A DNA stretch of 31,290 bases from positions 1-31,290 of the IMG/VR virus record IMGVR_UViG_3300018025_000052, one strand, 5' to 3'. Made by a program: the position numbers and the translations under genes. Origin of the DNA: a virus. Under the pieces are notes generated by a model. That model did no database searches. It was given only the letters and a program-made list of their open reading frames with translations, and was not told where the DNA came from. This document shows positions 2,260 to 28,960 of the stretch, piece by piece; within the stretch, counting starts at the first letter, position 1, and each line of letters starts with the position of its first letter.

Positions 2260-2604
2260 ATGACAGCGCAAACGCTAGAGCTAGTGGCCTTGGCCGTGGC
2301 CGAAATGAACGGTGCTTTCATTCCAAGGAGTGAGGCATTTTTGTATCGTAATCCGGGGAAGTTGCGCGAGGCGAATGGAAACCTTCGCATGTTCTCCACA
2401 TGGGCTGGTGGTTTGAAGAGCCTGATTAGTGATCTCTCGCGTTGGCCTGAGTACACCCCTGTATTGACGGTGTTCGAGAAATACGGTTGTGACTCCATCG
2501 AGAAAGAGTTCGTTGTTCTGGATTATCTTGGCCGGGCGGCTGATCGAGAGTTGAGCCAAGAGTCTACGTTGTCTGACGTAGAAGCGCCGAAGGAAGGAAA
2601 CTAA
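2260..2604 (+). CDS. Hypothetical virion-module protein with an RNPGxL motif (possible lysozyme-like fold)
   Basis: YRNPGKL...MFSTWAGGLKSL resembles the NNPGNL..F....G..A motif of small phage virion muramidase-like proteins. The gene is tightly packed in the operon. Confidence 0.4.
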   Translation: MTAQTLELVALAVAEMNGAFIPRSEAFLYRNPGKLREANGNLRMFSTWAGGLKSLISDLSRWPEYTPVLTVFEKYGCDSIEKEFVVLDYLGRAADRELSQESTLSDVEAPKEGN

Positions 2605-2605
2605 A

Positions 2606-4987
2606 ATGTCATTGGAATCAATGCAAGACCCTATCATAAAAACTCCTACGCCGGTTACCACGGCTACGCCGCCTCCCGCGCCTGCTGAGCCAGCGCCGGG
2701 GCAAGGGCAAGACCCTGCGGCTTTGCTTGGAGGAAACACGGCTGGTCCAGTTGTGCCTGCAAATCTGGCTCCCAAAGCCACGCCGCAACCTTCTTTGGCA
2801 AAGCAACAGCAGATAAGGTCTGCGGCTGAGGCTGCGGCTGCTCCAAATGCTCAAACACAGGTGAAAAGTCACCTATCAGGAATCTTGCACGCGATTGGTG
2901 ATGCACTTGGCGGACCTAAGACTGTAGAGACCGGCGGTGTGGCGTTTGACAAACAGGGCAACCCTGTCCCTGAGACTCGGACTCGTGGTACAGGCGAGCG
3001 TGTGATGGGAGTTATCGGGCGTGCTTTGACTGGCGCAGCAGCAGGAGCGGGAGCAGCGCAAGGTCCGGGTGGACTAGGAAAAGCTGCGGCGGCTGGCGCT
3101 CGTGTTGGAACGGAAATGAACGAGGCTGACCAAAAGCGGCGCATGGCGAATTTTGAAATGTTTCGTACTCATGCTGGTATGATCTCCGCATATCGGCATG
3201 AAGGAATGGAAGAGACCAGTGCTCTACAGTCAATTGCTGACCATGCGCTTCCTACACGGGATGCCATGTTGAACATGGGAACGATTAAGAGTGTCTTTGG
3301 TGAAGTTCCTGTAGATAGTGCTACAATGCAGGAAGAGTTGAACAAAGGAATCAAAGCAGGTTATGGAGCAGCCAAGCAATTTGCTTCACCCGGCCCGCCT
3401 ATCCCTGACCCAACTCGTCCGGGCAAGATGCAGCAAAGCTGGTTTATTCTGCGAGCAACGTCGCCTGACATGGATTTGGCTTCGCAAACCGTCACGGTCA
3501 ATTCGGAAGACTTGCGCCAGCAATTGAGCAAGCAGCTTGGTGTCGAAGTCAAGATGGGAGCCGAAGTCCCTGCCATCACTTTGTACAACTTGAATGGGCA
3601 GGCTCTTAACGCGATCTCTTCAATGGAGACTGCGCAAAAGGAACTTAAAGACGCGGGCATCGAGAACAAGACTCCGTTTACGGTCAAGGATTTCTACAAC
3701 CTAAAAGGCTCCGAATTGTTCGTCGCGCAGCGCGCTTTGAACCAGTGGTCCACGAAGTACAAGGGAAGCACCGGTGACGTGGTAACCGATCTGCAAAAGA
3801 TGGATAAGGACAACCCGTGGGGAGCCACGTGGATTGCCAAGAATCTGTACCAAAGCAAGCAAAAAGAGTTGGCCGATTTCCGCGAAGAAAAGAAAGCAGC
3901 AGAGCGTTCCGAATTGGAAGAAAAGCAAAAATTGCAAGTGGGTGCTCTTACTGAAGACGGGGCTAACAACATCCTTGCAACGAATGCTGCGGAAATTAAA
4001 GCCGGTATAAAAACACACACCTTTACTACTCAGCGTGTGGATGCGGCTGAAGATTTCATCAAAAAGAAACATGATCCTTTAGTAAAAATCGAATCAGATG
4101 ACAATGCGTTTACTGGGGATAAAGCCGCAGGAACTTTGGCGATGTTAGGTGAACTGCGCCAGACTGAGACTGACCCCGCTCGCCTTGTTCGTATCAACCA
4201 CGGCATCGCTGCGGCTAAGGCCGGGCACTCGGCATGGATGAATGACAAGTACACTCAGGCGAAGTTTGAACAAGACATCAAAGTAGGAGACCCTAAATCA
4301 GCGGCAGAATTTCTTGCAAATCGTACTATGACTATTGCGGATTTTAAGAACCGGGGCATGACCACAGACTGGATTACTCAAGCATTACATGCTACTCAGC
4401 AATATTGCAAAGATCACGGACTTCCTCCGTATGACGCTGTGGCCGAAGACGTGGCAGAGCGTCAGTCGCAAGGCGTCCAAAACGTTCAATTCTTTACTAA
4501 TGCTAATTCTCTTGTTAGCGAACATGGAACTTTAGCACAGTTGCGAACGGCATCAGAAGGACTAGCTGGTCAGACACAACTTCCCATGCTTAATAAGTGG
4601 GAAGACATTGTGCAAATGGCAACGGGTGGTGGAGCGCCAGCGAAGGTTGCTGCGTTGGCCATCGGTGCGGCGGACGATCTTTCACAAGTCATGGGCGGTG
4701 GCGGAACGGATACGGCCCGCGCTCAGGTGTTGAAGGTAGTGGACGCAAAGTTGTCGCCGGAGCAACGTAAGCAAGCCTTTGACGGCATCATCAACATGGT
4801 TAATTCAAAACGTGTTGCACGGTTTGGACGCAATATGTATCTGCGTCGGTTATATGGTTTGAATGAACAAGAAACTGGCGGATTTGGTGAGATGGACGGA
4901 CAGCACCCAAGATTTCAACAAGGCGAACAACAAAACATTCTAGACAAAGTAAAACAAGCCGCTCCGGGGCTTGTAATCAGTCAGTAA
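2606..4987 (+). CDS. Putative ejection / internal virion protein (793 aa)
   Basis: RBS GGAAGGAAA. Pro-rich N-terminus, Gly/Ala-rich hydrophobic stretches (GAAAGAGAAQGPGGLGKAAAAGA), coiled-coil segments, and operon position. Confidence 0.55.
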   Translation: MSLESMQDPIIKTPTPVTTATPPPAPAEPAPGQGQDPAALLGGNTAGPVVPANLAPKATPQPSLAKQQQIRSAAEAAAAPNAQTQVKSHLSGILHAIGDALGGPKTVETGGVAFDKQGNPVPETRTRGTGERVMGVIGRALTGAAAGAGAAQGPGGLGKAAAAGARVGTEMNEADQKRRMANFEMFRTHAGMISAYRHEGMEETSALQSIADHALPTRDAMLNMGTIKSVFGEVPVDSATMQEELNKGIKAGYGAAKQFASPGPPIPDPTRPGKMQQSWFILRATSPDMDLASQTVTVNSEDLRQQLSKQLGVEVKMGAEVPAITLYNLNGQALNAISSMETAQKELKDAGIENKTPFTVKDFYNLKGSELFVAQRALNQWSTKYKGSTGDVVTDLQKMDKDNPWGATWIAKNLYQSKQKELADFREEKKAAERSELEEKQKLQVGALTEDGANNILATNAAEIKAGIKTHTFTTQRVDAAEDFIKKKHDPLVKIESDDNAFTGDKAAGTLAMLGELRQTETDPARLVRINHGIAAAKAGHSAWMNDKYTQAKFEQDIKVGDPKSAAEFLANRTMTIADFKNRGMTTDWITQALHATQQYCKDHGLPPYDAVAEDVAERQSQGVQNVQFFTNANSLVSEHGTLAQLRTASEGLAGQTQLPMLNKWEDIVQMATGGGAPAKVAALAIGAADDLSQVMGGGGTDTARAQVLKVVDAKLSPEQRKQAFDGIINMVNSKRVARFGRNMYLRRLYGLNEQETGGFGEMDGQHPRFQQGEQQNILDKVKQAAPGLVISQ

Positions 4988-4997
4988 GTGAGGGACT

Positions 4998-7900
4998 ATG
5001 GCAGATCAAGAACAAGGCATTCAAACTCCGGCAACACCAAACTTGGAAGAGCCGGTAGCAGTTAATGTGCCGTCTGAGACCGCTCCTGCGCCTCCGACGC
5101 AATCTTTGATTCCAGCGGCCCCGGTGACTATTCCTACCGTTGACGAACTTGCGAAGGCCGGGGAACAGGTGTCGCATATTCCAGACAACCGTGTTATCCG
5201 CCTGAGCACTGGGCACATCGCAGTCGGGAATAGTGAGGACATCGAAAAGGCTCTGAAGGTCGATCCCGGAGCCACGGAGATTCCTAATGCGCCCGGCTAC
5301 GTTACTGTCCGGTTGTCCAGTGGACACATCGGAAGAATGCCTAAAGAGCAAGTCATCGACGCAATGAAGGCAGACCCTAAGATGCGTGTGCTCGCCGGAG
5401 ACACGAAGGGAATGCTTGACCCGAACGCAAAACAAGATCAGGCGTTGAAGGAACTTGCTAAGCCGCCGGATGCGCATCAAATGGGCATGGGTCCAGAGGC
5501 CGAGTTTGTGACCGGCATGGGAAAAGGTGCGGTCGAGACGCTGCGTGGTTTAAAGGGCGTGATTGCGCATGTTGTTGGAGAAAAAGTTGCCGACGACTGG
5601 ACTACAAACAACATGCCGAAGATCATGACTGTGGATACCGAAGGCAAGACGGCGTATGAAAGCGCCGGTAAGTTTGCCGAAGGTATTGCGGAGTGGATTT
5701 CTGGTGACGCAGCATTGAAAGGTTTGAGCGTTGCTGCGAAGCTCGGGCTGGCCGGGAAGATTGCTGACTTGGCAAAAACAAGTCCATACGCCGCTCGCTT
5801 TATCAGTCTTGGTTTGGACGCCGTGCGTGGTGCCACGGTTGGTGGTGCTATCGGCGGAGTCAAGGGCGCTGCGGGTAGTGAAGGTTTGAAGGGAGCCGCC
5901 GAGGGAGCCGTTGGAGGAGCCTTGATGATCGGCACAGCCGGTTTGACGGGCATGGGCCTTGAGGCCGTGGACAAAGCTGCGGGAATTTGGCTTGCAAAGT
6001 ATGCAGCCGCTCCGCCTAAAGAAGGTGCGCCGTCGCTTGGACAACTCGCTGTGAAATACGGGACCCGTGCTACGGCAGGGGCTATCCTATGGAAAGTGCG
6101 AGACTCCGCGCCTGCGCCAGTGAAGGGTCTCGTGACTATGATGTTGTACGGCCTTGGCTTCGAGTCTATGGGAGCCTTGGCGAGAGACATTCCTAAAGAG
6201 CTTTCAGAAAATCCGACTGTGGTTAGCGGCGCACAAAAGGCCGCGCACAACCTAGCTCCTATCTTCAATCGCATCGCTGGGGAGAGGGGTTTTGAAGAGG
6301 TTCCGGGAGAAGAGGCTGCTGCGCCGACTGAGAAGGCTGCGCCCGAGGCTACGCCGAAGGCCATGGTTGCGCCTGCCGCGCCTGCCCCTGCTCCAACTGA
6401 AGGAACTGCCTTTAAGACCCCTCCGGTAGGCCAGCCTACGGCGGCAGGAAACGTTGATTTTGGAAAGATTACGCCAGAGCCTACCCTGGGCGAGCATCCG
6501 GCTACGCCTATTCTGCGGGCAGAGCAAGAAGCGAAGGCGCGTGAGGCCAACGGCCAGCCAGCGCCGGGCACGCCTGCGAAGGCTACAGGTGAGGAAGTAA
6601 GGGATGTGGAAGAGGCTAAGCCAGCAGAGCCAGCCAAGGCACCGGCCAAACCCGGAACACAGAAACAGACGCCTCCAAATCACGTTGAGGCCCATGCAAA
6701 AGCAGCAGAGGCTACAGCCGTAGACGGTGCAAAGCCCATGGTGTACAACGGGACCGTGGAAGGAACTGCGTACTTTACGGACCCCGAACGTGGTAACACA
6801 ACGTACACGCTTTCTGAGAAGGAAGTCACGCCTGAGAACTTGATGATGCGCCGCGACCTGACTCCTCCGCCAGAGATCGCTCCGGCGGTAAGAGCATTTC
6901 AGGAAGTAGCTGCGCCGTCTCACGCCGAAGGCGAAGTGCCCAAAGTTAAGACTCCTAAAATTGAGGCCCCGCCGCCTCAAGAATCTAGTACTCGTGTTAT
7001 AGAAAGTTACTTGAACACCAGAAATAATCAACGTGTTAATGTGATAGAAACTACTGAAGGAAGGCGTTACATTGAATATCCAGACAATATATCAGAACTA
7101 TCGGGAGCAGGAACTGGAATTTACAGCAAAAGTTTCATAGATGACGCTGTGTCAAGAGGCATATTGAAAAAAATAACAATAGTTCCACTAGGCTCAGCCG
7201 AAGGTGTTGGAGAACCACCTCTTCCTAAGAGCAAGATTACGGCAGGAACACCTGAAGCAGACAATTACATCAAACAGTTCAAAGAATCTCACCCCGAAGC
7301 TGTCGCGCCTAAAGCAAAGGGCGTCGCTCCGATGACAGACGAGGAAATTCTTGCCACACAGCAGGCCAACAAAGGCACCATGGATTTCCGTGGGAAGTTT
7401 GACAGCGAGGCCGAGGCGCAGAAAAAGATCGACACCAGCGGCGAAAAATATAAGGGCTGGAAGCCGTTCCAGATCAAGTACGGAAACAGGGCTGGTGAAT
7501 GGCGTATTGCACGACCGATTATTACTAATGAAAATCTTAATTCATTTGATATTAGTAAAGAGGAAGTAATTTTCGGCCATGAAGCCGCAGGCCATTGTTT
7601 AATGGCAGATATTACTGATACACCCACGAAAGAAGGGATTGAATTTACTCCGACAGGGGCACGCACACGTATTGATTTTGATAAAATAGTCCAAGCAGAG
7701 GCAGACCATCCTGAAGAAATAAGCAATCTGTTGGCGACGTTTGCGGGAACTCGTGCTATTGAAATTGGGAAAAATAATCCTATACAAAGCAAACTTCTTA
7801 CATTTGCAGCCGGGCCTCGTATAGACGAGATCATGGGTTATACTAGTCGTAATGCAGACATGAATGTAATTGGAAGCGACGGCTACAGATTTAAGAAAGT

Positions 7901-20767: not shown

Positions 20768-21204
20768 GTGTTGTCTCCTGATTCAAATAAGGCTTCCTCT
20801 GCCTTGCGCCTTTTGAGTAGGCCAGCCAAGTGCTGTCCGCCTGCCATGTCCCACATCTCTAGCACCTTGGCTGCGCCGTGATAGTCTTTGTTGTTGAGCA
20901 GCCGGAGTGTTGTTGACTTCTCGAAATTTCCGCTTCCAGCATTGAACACGAAGTCCACAAGGCCATCGAACTCCGGCTGCGTTAGTGGAACATGCACGAC
21001 GCGGTTGACTTCGGATTCAGCCCATGCCACGTCTGAGAGTAGCCAAGCATCGGCTTGTTCCTGCGTGCAGGTCATGCCCTCGACCACTTTATAGGTATGC
21101 CCCCAACCAATGGTATAGACCTTTCCGTTGGCGTCCCAATAGGCTACAAGCCTGCATTGCTCGAAGTTTTCAGTTAACTTCATTCCGTCTTTGGAATATC
21201 GCAT
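20764..21204 (-). CDS. GH24 phage lysozyme (endolysin-type)
   Basis: FEQCRL.AY.D...YTIGWGHT (E-x8-D-x6-T), FD.LVDFVFNAG and GL..RR.AE. Confidence 0.92.
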   Translation of the reverse strand: MRYSKDGMKLTENFEQCRLVAYWDANGKVYTIGWGHTYKVVEGMTCTQEQADAWLLSDVAWAESEVNRVVHVPLTQPEFDGLVDFVFNAGSGNFEKSTTLRLLNNKDYHGAAKVLEMWDMAGGQHLAGLLKRRKAEEALFESGDNT

Positions 21205-22331
21205 ACTGCTTTTTCCTTCCCATCGTCTTCCTCGATCACTTGGCAGGCGGCTGGTACGATTTCGTCTGTGTTCTGTTCTTTGAATATGGCTGTAATGGCT
21301 TTGTCTTGTATGTCAAGAACGACCATGCCCGGCTTGCGTAGTTGGCCTGTGCCGATGATCGTTGCCAAAGGACTGACGATGTGTTCCTCGATCATGCGCT
21401 TGATGTTGCGAGCGCCGTGTTTCGGGTCAGACCCCTTGCTCAGAAACTCATTCAATTTCGTAGTCACGCCAAGTGTGAACACGAGTTGTTGTGGGGTGGG
21501 ACTGCGTTCGTTTGCAGCCATCACGACACTCAACCCGCGATTCCATACTTTCCAAACTTCGATGTTAATGATTCGGTTAATGGCCTCGGCGGTGAGAGGC
21601 TTGTATACCAGAATCTTGTTGATACGCCCCATGAACTCAGGGTCGAACTTTCGTTTCGCGGCGGAGGTAGCCTGCTTTGAAATGTCCCTGAAAGCCTCGA
21701 CGTAATCCCTAGCCTCGGCGAAGCCAATGGACTCTTGGTTGATGACCCGGCTACCTACGTTGCTGGTGAGAAAGATGAGCGCCCGCGTCAAGTCGATGCG
21801 CATATTGCGGCCATCGTACATCTCACCTTTGTCCAGAATGCCCAACAGAAGCTCCCACAGGCGTGGGCTGGCCTTCTCAATTTCATCGAAGAGTATTACG
21901 CTCACCTTCGGGCCTTCTTGCGTCCAGCCACGTTGTAGGTTCTCGGGACATAGAAGTGGGCGTGTACCCTTGTTTCCGGCCTCGGCGGGGTTGTAGTGCC
22001 CAGCATAGCCCGGTGGAGACCCTATAATGCGAGCTACTTGGTGATCTTCGGTATATTCTGCGCAGTTGATCTTTATCATGCAATCCGGGTCTCCGTGGAT
22101 TGCTTCGGCGATTGACTCTACGGTCAACGTCTTGCCAACCCCAGTCGGTCCCAAAAGTAAAGAATTAAACATTGGTTTAGACGGGTCTGACAGGCCAACC
22201 CACGCAACCTCGAATGACCTGCTAAGATCATTTAAGGCGTCGTCCTGACCCACTATGCGCTTGAAGAGCAAGTCTTCAAACTTTTGCCGCGCTTTGGTTT
22301 TAAGTGTCAGGTCCAGCGGAATGTTAGCCAT
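21180..22331 (-). CDS. Single-module Clp AAA+ ATPase (ClpA/ClpC D2-like) with IGF ClpP-docking loop
   Basis: IVGQ..A, GPTGVGKT, RIIGSPPGYAG, ILFDEIEKA, LTSNVG..ESIGF, FDPEFMGRI, GARNIKR. There is no N-domain or D1. Confidence 0.85.
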   Translation of the reverse strand: MANIPLDLTLKTKARQKFEDLLFKRIVGQDDALNDLSRSFEVAWVGLSDPSKPMFNSLLLGPTGVGKTLTVESIAEAIHGDPDCMIKINCAEYTEDHQVARIIGSPPGYAGHYNPAEAGNKGTRPLLCPENLQRGWTQEGPKVSVILFDEIEKASPRLWELLLGILDKGEMYDGRNMRIDLTRALIFLTSNVGSRVINQESIGFAEARDYVEAFRDISKQATSAAKRKFDPEFMGRINKILVYKPLTAEAINRIINIEVWKVWNRGLSVVMAANERSPTPQQLVFTLGVTTKLNEFLSKGSDPKHGARNIKRMIEEHIVSPLATIIGTGQLRKPGMVVLDIQDKAITAIFKEQNTDEIVPAACQVIEEDDGKEKAVCDIPKTE

Positions 22332-27974: not shown

Positions 27975-28190
27975 TCATCGCAAAGATGAATGGTTTCGTT
28001 TCCAGACTGTACTGTATGGTTCCCGTCTTTGTCGCATTGTTCGTACTGTGCTCCATTCAAAATGTTGGCCCGGCGCTCCGATGGTAGCGATTGTTGCGAG
28101 AAAAAGGTATAGGCTTCCGACCGTAAATACGTTCAACCAGTGGCTCATTTGTTTATCCTCAGCCCGAGTTTGCGCCGGAGCTTCCGGCAC
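27975..28190 (-). CDS. Small hypothetical membrane protein
   Basis: Hydrophobic stretch LNVFTVGSLYLFLATIATIG. The true start may be MSHWL. Confidence 0.45.
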   Translation of the reverse strand: MPEAPAQTRAEDKQMSHWLNVFTVGSLYLFLATIATIGAPGQHFEWSTVRTMRQRREPYSTVWKRNHSSLR

Positions 28191-28381
28191 ATGATCTCGA
28201 ATTTTTCCCTAAGCTCATCGGTCTCGTTGGCGTAGATCGTGTGCGAGCCGATGCGGATAGCGTAGTGTGGGCCTTTCGGCGGAGCATCCTCAAGACGCGA
28301 GGCATACGAAGTAAAGTAGTTCCAGCGTTCCAAGCTGTTCATTACCGCCACTTGCTTTGCATCAAGACCTAGCAGCGCCAT
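28145..28381 (-). CDS. Hypothetical protein (78 aa from MALLGLDAKQ)
   Basis: ATG 28381 follows AAGGGGG. The upstream extension in the ORF track overlaps structured RNA. Confidence 0.55.
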   Translation of the reverse strand: MALLGLDAKQVAVMNSLERWNYFTSYASRLEDAPPKGPHYAIRIGSHTIYANETDELREKFEIMCRKLRRKLGLRINK

Positions 28382-28399
28382 TGGACCCCCTTCTTTACC

Positions 28400-28680
28400 A
28401 GTAGAGGCCGGTGTTACCCGGCCCCACCCGGCTCCGCGTCGGCGTGACGAAGCATACACCCCAATCTTGCCCGTCGAAACCGTAACAGGCCCACAATAAT
28501 CAGCCATAATTTCCCTACGGTCATGGCACGATGTTGTCTGTATACGCCTTGCTTTGCAACACACGTCTAAGAACTTGCCTAACAACTAGGGTATGGCTGA
28601 TTATGGTGGACCTGCGGAGGCGGTGAACGCCGTCCATTAAACTCGGTAGGGGAGTCCTTCGACTCCCCATCCTTGTATGC
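28400..28680 (-). ncRNA. Second permuted tmRNA-like tRNA domain (degenerate T arm)
   Basis: CAGGTCC-A-CCA (28614-28604) pairs 7/7 with GGGCCTG (28492-28486), again with G3.U70. It is followed by TTACGGTTTCGACGGG, a typical tmRNA 5' end. The H2-like pairing GCATACA/TGTATGC is also present. Confidence 0.7.
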
Positions 28681-28960
28681 AAACTACGCATTTGCGTAAA
28701 GCACCTTCGTGTTTTTCGCAGTTAGTTTTGAGAGTTGATTTCGGAAGTCTCCCACTCCCGGCTCAAATAAGCGCCGTTTCCTCTTACCCCGGTCGATGCC
28801 ATTATACCCCCGTATGGTGGAGGTAGAGAGAATCGAACTCTCGTGTCGTTGTATAGTCATACGGCCTGTTTATGAGCGTACTTTATAATAGCTCTCGGCG
28901 GACCAGAACGCCGGGCTACTGCCAGTACCAAGGGGCCTCACGGCCTCCACCATCTGATCT
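28604..28960 (-). ncRNA. ssrA: Circularly permuted (two-piece) tmRNA
   Basis: The T arm GAGAG-TTCGATT-CTCTC and TACCTCC-A-CCA (ends 28815) come before the 5' strand GGGGGTA-TAATGGCATCGAC (starts 28811). The acceptor stem has G3.U70 and A73. PK1 is CGGGAG/CTTCCG plus TGGGAG/CTCTCA. The resume context is CTAACT|GCG, giving tag AKNTKVLYANA* at 28719-28684. Confidence 0.9.

Follow-up and report, generated by a model that had tools for sequence, protein, structure and literature searches.

Here we describe a gene for a ribosome-rescue RNA in the window, the 31,290-bp stretch of viral DNA that makes up IMG/VR record IMGVR_UViG_3300018025_000052 (rated 32% complete). Judged from its sequence, the locus is a genuine phage-carried gene for a circularly permuted, two-piece transfer-messenger RNA (tmRNA). 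A decayed copy lies directly behind the intact gene, and this arrangement is the main new point of our analysis. The source is a tailed phage with a genome of roughly 95 kb; the window encodes a family A DNA polymerase, a primase-helicase, a superfamily II helicase, RecA/UvsX, a Clp-type AAA+ ATPase and a lytic transglycosylase domain, and this phage gene content supports the phage-borne reading of the tmRNA. The parts of the intact gene (element 1) are listed below from 5' to 3', with lengths in nucleotides (nt).

28995-28967, minus strand: sigma-70-like promoter found by a promoter scan (-35 TTGACT at 28995-28990, 17-nt spacing, -10 TATCCT at 28972-28967, with a TG upstream)
28960-28878, minus strand: 5' leader of the precursor, forming the 5' tail of the acceptor piece
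28877-28815, minus strand: core of the acceptor piece, defined by the Rfam alignment, the two-strand fold and covariation
28877-28873 (GCUCA) and 28866-28861 (GGCCGU), minus strand: 3'-side strands of helix P2
28842-28826, minus strand: T arm, with stem GAGAG (28842-28838)/CUCUC (28830-28826) and the 7-nt loop UUCGAUU
28825-28819, 28818 and 28817-28815, minus strand: acceptor 3' strand UACCUCC, A73 and CCA
28814-28812, minus strand: intervening segment UAC (3 nt), read directly from the sequence
28811-28761, minus strand: start of the coding piece, GGGGGUA (28811-28805) and then the D-loop analogue UAAUGGCAUCGAC, defined by the Rfam alignment, the two-strand fold and covariation
28777-28772 (ACGGCG) and 28765-28761 (UGAGC), minus strand: 5'-side strands of P2
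28760-28730, minus strand: pseudoknot PK1, with S1 CGGG (28760-28757)/UCCG (28745-28742) and S2 GGGAG (28753-28749)/CUCUC (28734-28730)
28719-28684, minus strand: tag reading frame of 11 codons from GCG (28719-28717) to UAG (28686-28684), predicted to encode AKNTKVLYANA*, with the resume codon placed by the Rfam alignment
28698-28685, minus strand: hairpin UACGC-AAAU-GCGUA, containing the last tag codons and the stop
28668-28649, minus strand: terminal hairpin GGGGAGUC-GAAG-GACUCCCC, which folds and to which the beta_tmRNA model aligns the terminal hairpin of its family

The order is circularly permuted, as the T arm, the acceptor 3' strand and the CCA (ending at 28815) lie upstream of G1 (28811). 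All seven positions of the acceptor stem GGGGGUA/UACCUCC pair, including G3.U70, and the stem is accompanied by the discriminator A73 and an encoded CCA; the P2 pairings GCUCA/UGAGC and GCCGU/ACGGC were likewise verified. The Rfam model tmRNA_permuted (RF04321) matches 28877-28684 on the minus strand over model positions 1-213, scoring 64.8 bits against a cut-off of 47 (E = 1.6e-10 for the whole window). An unconstrained two-strand fold of the presumed pieces produced the 7-bp acceptor stem, a 5-bp T stem with its 7-nt loop and an interrupted P2 helix, and ten homologues of differing sequence adopted the same fold when treated in this way. A complementarity check of PK1 gave 4 bp for S1 and 5 bp for S2 with H-type loop lengths, and S1 is also paired in the Rfam alignment.

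The pairs of the acceptor stem, the T stem and the outer P2 helix were then examined for covariation in an alignment of 12 phage homologues (IMG/VR relatives together with the cultured phages Tunturi 3 and Tunturi 4). Paired states filled 98.5% of the cells and both sides changed in 13 of the 17 pairs, values that none of 500 shuffles reached, while slid controls paired in 29-49%. Within the acceptor stem G1-C72, G2-C71 and G3.U70 are invariant and positions 4-7 covary; four of the five T-stem pairs covary, and every pair of the outer P2 helix (5/5) changes on both sides.

A helicase-based search recovered a sister haplotype, L208, whose helicase is 88% identical to that of the window phage (background identity of the two phages, 87-93%) and which recurs identically in two contigs from other samples (L217 and L219). 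L208 carries a single permuted tmRNA (79.6 bits), for which ARAGORN calls the tag ANTKVMYATA*; this is homologous to AKNTKVLYANA* and has the same stop-codon hairpin. The promoter is kept in L208, where the -10 element reads TATACT, and the 101-nt block 28996-28896, comprising the promoter plus the initial 65 nt of leader sequence, is 91% identical between the two. By hand comparison of three sequences, the window included, L208 and a further relative (G001) form pseudoknots at the position of PK1 from different sequences.

These results bear out most of an earlier sequence-only reading of this DNA. The features it listed all lie where it had put them on the minus strand, and its central proposal, a phage-borne circularly permuted tmRNA with a 3-nt segment and its own tag, is upheld by the RF04321 score, the covariation, the L208 tag and the phage gene content. 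The gene has its own promoter as proposed (TTGACT-17-TATCCT, kept in L208), as well as the identity pair for alanyl-tRNA synthetase (AlaRS), G3.U70 with A73, the former invariant in all 12 homologues. The pseudoknot it had described as full proved to be H-type with complementary S1 and S2, and its choice of resume codon, tag and tag-end hairpin agrees with the Rfam placement and the homologous L208 tag. Two of the checks it proposed succeeded in part. In the search with tmRNA programs RF04321 recognised the gene, but ARAGORN did not and no lineage-specific model reached its cut-off; in the test for covariation among homologues, the acceptor, T and outer P2 stems gave support, but PK1 did so only by hand in three sequences.

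Several observations weigh against the identification. ARAGORN calls nothing but a tRNA-His in the window, missing a gene with a 3-nt spacer although it calls the sister gene in L208 with its 25-nt spacer, which exposes a blind spot in annotation, whether or not the short spacer is the cause. The beta_tmRNA model (RF01850) gives 35.8 bits against a cut-off of 84, with an alignment (28928-28645) that includes the terminal hairpin, and neither alpha_tmRNA (RF01849) nor cyano_tmRNA (RF01851) is at its gathering threshold, both being outscored by beta_tmRNA within the clan in E-value mode. The Rfam alignment places two A.G mismatches in the innermost segment of P2. The tag ends in YANA (in L208, YATA) and not in the hydrophobic LAA/VAA-type degron that is typical of the family, if not universal, so that proteolytic targeting is uncertain. 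Finally, no terminator follows the intact gene, which leaves its 3' end undefined, and the host assignment depends only on the primase-helicases of cultured phages, at 34-37% identity, and on related contigs having come from peat.

The second element, a degenerate permuted tRNA-like element, spans the following positions.

28680-28438, minus strand: element 2 as a whole, scoring 15.9-18.1 bits in E-value-mode Rfam searches against a cut-off of 47
28680-28674, minus strand: vestigial P2 strand GCAUACA
28631-28615, minus strand: broken T region of 17 nt, in which 2 of 5 positions pair in the canonical register (by reading)
28614-28604, minus strand: CAGGUCC-A-CCA
28603-28493, minus strand: intervening segment of 111 nt, which folds into a long hairpin
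28492-28486, minus strand: GGGCCUG, followed by the 5' half to 28438 with the typical UUACGGUUUCGACGG continuation

In element 2 all 7 bp of the acceptor stem are preserved, G3.U70 included, as are A73, CCA and the conserved GGUUUCGAC motif. Over the 5' half (28494-28438) it shares 91% identity with the working L208 tmRNA, in line with the background identity of the two phages, and the 81-nt block that holds PK1 and the tag in L208 is missing. In the minimum-energy fold P2 is not formed and local hairpins take its place, leaving a vestigial GCAUACA/UGUAUGC pairing. Model score, intact T arm, PK1 and tag frame, by which a functional tmRNA is recognised, are thus all wanting. We interpret element 2 as a decayed orthologue of the working L208 tmRNA and element 1 as the only intact copy in the window phage. 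It follows that the sequence-only reading, which had extended the gene down to 28604, took the CCA end of element 2 for its boundary; the last ~40 nt of that interval (28644-28604) lie outside the intact gene. An independent Joint Genome Institute (JGI) contig from another sample (L215, 52.9 kb) is 99.94% identical to the window over 12.3 kb and 100% identical across 960 nt spanning the locus, which argues that the tandem arrangement is not an assembly artefact.

Most simply, element 2 is what remains of a gene duplication or replacement. Element 1, apart from the tag, diverges from the L208 gene far more than the flanking DNA does, and either element 1 was acquired by recombination or it was lost in the L208 lineage. 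The accepted view is that permuted genes arise through duplication and subsequent loss (PMC3978253). With two permuted genes arranged head to tail, the part of the transcript that extends from one RNase P site to the other (28811-28604) runs through a 5' acceptor strand, P2, PK1, tag, T region and CCA, the linear order of a standard one-piece tmRNA. This head-to-tail order matches the duplication-and-loss route proposed for permutation and the 're-permuted' gene of Jakoba libera. An RNase P cut at the relic would set free the coding piece along with the mRNA downstream. The locus may have been caught mid-turnover of its tmRNA gene; alternatively, or in addition, the relic may be kept for its RNase P cut or as an SmpB decoy, and more broadly a soil-phage lineage may be bringing two-piece tmRNAs with non-canonical tags into one-piece hosts. 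We offer this account as speculation and think it unlikely.

We consider it quite probable that element 1 is a working ssrA gene in two-piece form. The promoter, which sits at the end of the helicase gene and overlaps its stop codon, would drive a precursor starting near 28960 in which the tRNA-like domain has its 3' half ahead of its 5' half. Host RNase P would cut 5' of G28811 and host 3' exonucleases would remove the UAC, exposing the CCA at 28815, with the two pieces held together by the acceptor stem and the long P2 helix. Host AlaRS would charge the RNA through G3.U70 and A73, and host SmpB and EF-Tu would bring it to stalled ribosomes, where translation would resume at GCG (28719) and add AKNTKVLYANA. 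Neither the window nor any of four relatives rated 94-100% complete has a member of the Pfam SmpB family, in agreement with the sequence-only reading, so dependence on host SmpB is plausible and can reasonably be supposed. Searches for smpB and RF-1 in the window and its relatives were negative except in Tunturi 4.

At its 3' end the intact gene most likely finishes after the hairpin at 28668-28649, which would mark the end region of the first coding piece. A terminator scan found none after the intact gene or after element 2, and there is no U tract behind this hairpin, so read-through is likely. The leader contains at 28953-28944 the sequence AUGGUGGAGG, whose 10 nt are all complementary to the acceptor 3' end of element 1 (CCUCCACCAU). 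The same leader sequence has 8-nt complementarity to the CCA end of element 2, and the L208 leader complements the 3' end of its own tmRNA over 7 nt; no such complement is present in more distant relatives.

The nearest cultured relatives infect Tunturiibacter and Granulicella (Acidobacteriota). In two Granulicella genomes the tmRNA is of the standard one-piece kind (167-171 bits, tag AEPQFALAA), with no permuted gene scoring above the cut-off, and for 2144 Acidobacteriota genomes the 2025 tmRNA database contains 1589 genes of the standard form and only 5 permuted ones (beta-type). Since Acidobacteriota use a one-piece tmRNA, the window gene is not a fresh capture from a host; it is passed on within a phage lineage, the closest cultured members of which grow on Acidobacteriota. 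If the host assignment holds, the phage gene thus differs in form from that of its host.

The unusual tag end raises an alternative that we find conceivable although unlikely, namely that the RNA is made and binds SmpB and ribosomes while its main role is not tag-directed proteolysis: it might only free ribosomes for phage translation, or the tag might route products to the phage Clp-type unfoldase (21180-22331) and not to host ClpXP. The ANA and ATA ends of the window and L208 tags, set against AEPQFALAA in Granulicella, a genus from the family to which the nearest cultured phages' hosts belong, fit this idea, as do the very diverse tags of the phage group, often 25-33 amino acids long, and the unfoldase gene itself, a single-module AAA_2/ClpB_D2-small ATPase that PHROG labels 'ATP-dependent protease'. 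However, this ATPase is tied to the tag solely by a shared genome, tag ends of the canonical LAA or VAA kind occur in several relatives, and no ClpP was found among the window open reading frames (ORFs) scanned, the window as a whole not having been searched for ClpP. It is also rather improbable that the two elements form one composite unit, either a three-piece RNA with two chargeable ends or an intact gene with element 2 maintained as an RNase P signal or as an SmpB decoy that consists of a tRNA-like domain only. The RNA from 28811 to 28604 does hold the 5' acceptor strand of the first domain and the CCA end of the second, no terminator separates the elements, and element 2 has preserved its acceptor stem, G3.U70, A73, CCA and GGUUUCGAC; moreover, the tRNA-like-domain-only tmRNA of mycobacteriophage DS6A is reported to inhibit host tmRNA (PMC4131195, PMC11915505). 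Against this stand the T region with its two pairs in five, the local hairpins in place of P2, the deletion of PK1 and the tag relative to L208 and the sub-threshold Rfam score, and element 2 is carried by one haplotype only.

That the intact gene is itself a non-functional leftover or a pure decoy, carried along without productive processing or charging, seems very improbable to us. ARAGORN misses it and the neighbouring copy is decaying, a sign that tmRNA genes turn over at this locus; yet all its defining elements are intact, its promoter and leader are conserved, its tag is conserved at the protein level with respect to L208, including the tag-end hairpin, and most complete relatives keep a tmRNA. 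A protein-coding explanation is almost certainly wrong. It would draw on a 58-codon ORF (28860-28684) that is open from an ATG and ends in the tag frame, but no Shine-Dalgarno sequence was seen ahead of it, and it extends through the acceptor stem, CCA end and T arm, in which changes compensate RNA pairs and are not codon-wise. Furthermore, homologues differ in the length of the intervening segment (3 to 154 nt), so that a reading frame is not maintained. A functional two-piece tmRNA therefore remains our preferred reading of element 1.

Permuted tmRNAs are widespread among the relatives of the window phage. Nine of 44 IMG/VR relatives score above the RF04321 cut-off, and a permuted gene is present in eight of the nine complete 90-100-kb genomes closest to the window (the G001 record counted in). 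G001 also reaches the alpha_tmRNA model, at 59.9 bits against a cut-off of 50. In a helicase-anchored relative, L002, there is no tmRNA near the helicase and the genome's own tmRNA lies 66 kb off. The nearest cultured phages are the Tunturiibacter phages Tunturi 3 and Tunturi 4 (primase-helicase identity 34-37%), and both carry unannotated permuted tmRNAs: in Tunturi 3 (L313, PP885686.1, 88172-88396) the RF04321 score is 63.3 bits and the intervening segment 25 nt, and in Tunturi 4 (L314, PP885687.1, 43532-44293) the values are 79.2 bits and 154 nt. The paper describing these genomes makes no mention of tmRNA (PMC11924767), and for Tunturi 3 it reports tRNAs only, some of them 'unknown' (PMC11924767). 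The Tunturi 4 tmRNA directly adjoins gp53, whose annotation is that of a peptide chain release factor with an RF-1 domain (Pfam RF-1, 41.8 bits) and which is an ArfB-like rescue factor; together the two look like a small phage ribosome-rescue module.

Other comparisons were less productive. A blastn search of the tmRNA locus against 50,697 phage records returned no match, and the leader motif had none in IMG/VR. Scanning metagenomes with this motif gave L217 and L219 together with three further contigs (L216, L218 and L220), which were discarded as unrelated coding sequence. Most relatives (L004, L301, L303-L305, L307 and L309) share CCUAGCAACAGAA or UUGGAAACAGAA 3' of the tag frame, and in G001 the shared motif lies within a terminator-like hairpin.

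Downstream of the tandem locus is a small protein gene.

28381-28145, minus strand: gene for a 78-amino-acid protein, with ATG at 28381 and a Shine-Dalgarno sequence

Its product is 99% identical to that of L208 (93% at the nucleotide level) and 56% identical to the product of the gene directly after the helicase in L209, which has no tmRNA there. We take this gene to be real, and the tmRNA unit and the 78-amino-acid gene are probably one transcript that is cut up afterwards. A candidate 'long tag' (GGU AAA GAA...), in frame into this gene, was rejected, as a 1-nt insertion breaks the frame in L208 and L208 has a separate tag; the purine run is thus the Shine-Dalgarno sequence of a conserved protein gene. 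A listed 146-amino-acid ORF (28145-28585, from a TTG at 28585) was judged an artefactual extension across element 2 and has no Pfam or PHROG match. In L208 an additional EcoRII-C-domain gene and two small ORFs (2451-3569) that are not in the window stand between the helicase and the tmRNA promoter. The L215 contig extends the same phage upstream of the window, where it carries genes for a T4 Rnl1-type RNA ligase (4533-5921) and a DksA/TraR zinc-finger protein (1574-1987), both within a few kb of the helicase on its upstream side; the locus starts with genes for tRNA-Tyr and tRNA-Gln.

The 3-nt intervening segment is not unusual. Within the phage group of the window the segment ranges from 3 to 154 nt, and we scanned for CTCCACCA followed by 1-10 nt and then a tmRNA 5' end, filtering the matches for a full acceptor stem and T arm. 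In IMG/VR this yielded 38 distinct permuted tmRNAs with spacers of 3-10 nt, two of them with 3 nt and fifteen with 4 nt. The bacterial scan gave at least 29 permuted tmRNAs, among the matches listed mostly from Rhodocyclaceae/Accumulibacter with 4 nt, and at least two with 3 nt. A 4-nt-spacer gene is the only tmRNA above the cut-off in a complete Accumulibacter genome, and a 3-nt-spacer gene is likewise the only one in a Pseudomonadota metagenome-assembled genome (MAG). Because the short-spacer gene is the sole tmRNA of these bacteria, such precursors must be processed in vivo.

Not every match to such patterns was retained. Many in high-GC Actinomycetota and other groups have neither T arm nor stem complementarity and were counted as chance, and a first junction pattern returned only a standard one-piece phage tmRNA, again by chance. 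The latter (L003, 7094-7530; 100.2 bits) lies within a cluster of 15 tRNA genes on an unrelated 83-kb viral contig (IMGVR_UViG_3300032397_000008). A 2.9-kb contig of a Candidatus Peribacteria MAG (L075) has a permuted tmRNA with a 3-nt UAC segment (87.2 bits) in a genome that also has two standard tmRNAs; this gene may be phage-derived or mis-binned. In three further contigs (L014 from Granulicella, at 6065-6095, L127 and L130) the tmRNA 3' end CUCCACCA stands 1-4 nt upstream of a tmRNA-type 5' end with no T arm before it. The genomes of L014 and L130 were confirmed to have a standard one-piece tmRNA, and one genome of this set (G047) has two standard copies.

In comparison with known systems, the window gene shares with the permuted tmRNA family (RF04321) the gene order of 3' half, segment, 5' half, PK1 and tag, the G3.U70 pair, A73 and encoded CCA, the T arm, a P2 helix between the pieces, an alanine resume codon and a score above the curated cut-off. 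It differs in reaching no lineage-specific cut-off, in being phage-borne and in its YANA tag end. The two-piece tmRNAs of Rhodocyclaceae/Accumulibacter resemble it in their very short segment (mostly 4 nt, 3 nt in one genome) and in a terminal hairpin after the tag, and in those bacteria the two-piece gene is the only tmRNA gene. BLAST, however, aligns them to the window gene in the tRNA-like domain only (76-81% over ~55 nt), and leader and tag are unrelated.

Among phages, two-piece tmRNAs have been described from the marine Methylophilales phage Melnitz and from pelagimyophages (PMC9004378), and account for 53 of 133 unique phage tmRNAs (PMC9004378). The sequence-only reading, which had treated phage tmRNAs as uncommon, therefore overstated the rarity of the find, given also that phages and Rhodocyclaceae-type bacteria commonly have segments as short as 3-4 nt. 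As in the window, the marine genes are permuted ssrA genes behind an early-type promoter and differ in form from those of the host (PMC9004378); the window gene differs in belonging to a soil/peat lineage related to the Tunturiibacter phages and in being followed by a decayed second copy, and Rfam finds no glutamine riboswitch in the window, a further difference from the marine systems. Tunturi 3 and 4 belong to the same phage group by primase-helicase, match RF04321 and have stems that covary with those of the window, but their segments are longer and Tunturi 4 has a long tag ending in YAVAA (ARAGORN).

Element 2 in turn recalls the tmRNAs that consist of a tRNA-like domain without a coding sequence (CDS), namely those of DS6A, of jakobid mitochondria and of the 'Permuted, no CDS' class (PMC11915505), with which it shares an alanine-identity acceptor stem and the absence of a tag frame. 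That compilation lists 79 phage tmRNAs in addition to the class (PMC11915505). Element 2 is set apart by its disrupted T arm, its position in tandem behind an intact copy and, from the comparison with L208, the loss of PK1 and tag by deletion.

In summary, the class of gene is known and the novelties are modest: a soil/peat phage lineage, a non-canonical tag end and a relic copy behind the gene. Phage two-piece tmRNAs have so far come mainly from marine phages, and the window extends them to peat and soil. The intact-plus-relic tandem provides a concrete example of tmRNA gene turnover inside a phage genome, and with Tunturi 3 and Tunturi 4 in culture, the benefit that a phage draws from having its own ribosome-rescue RNA can be addressed by experiment.

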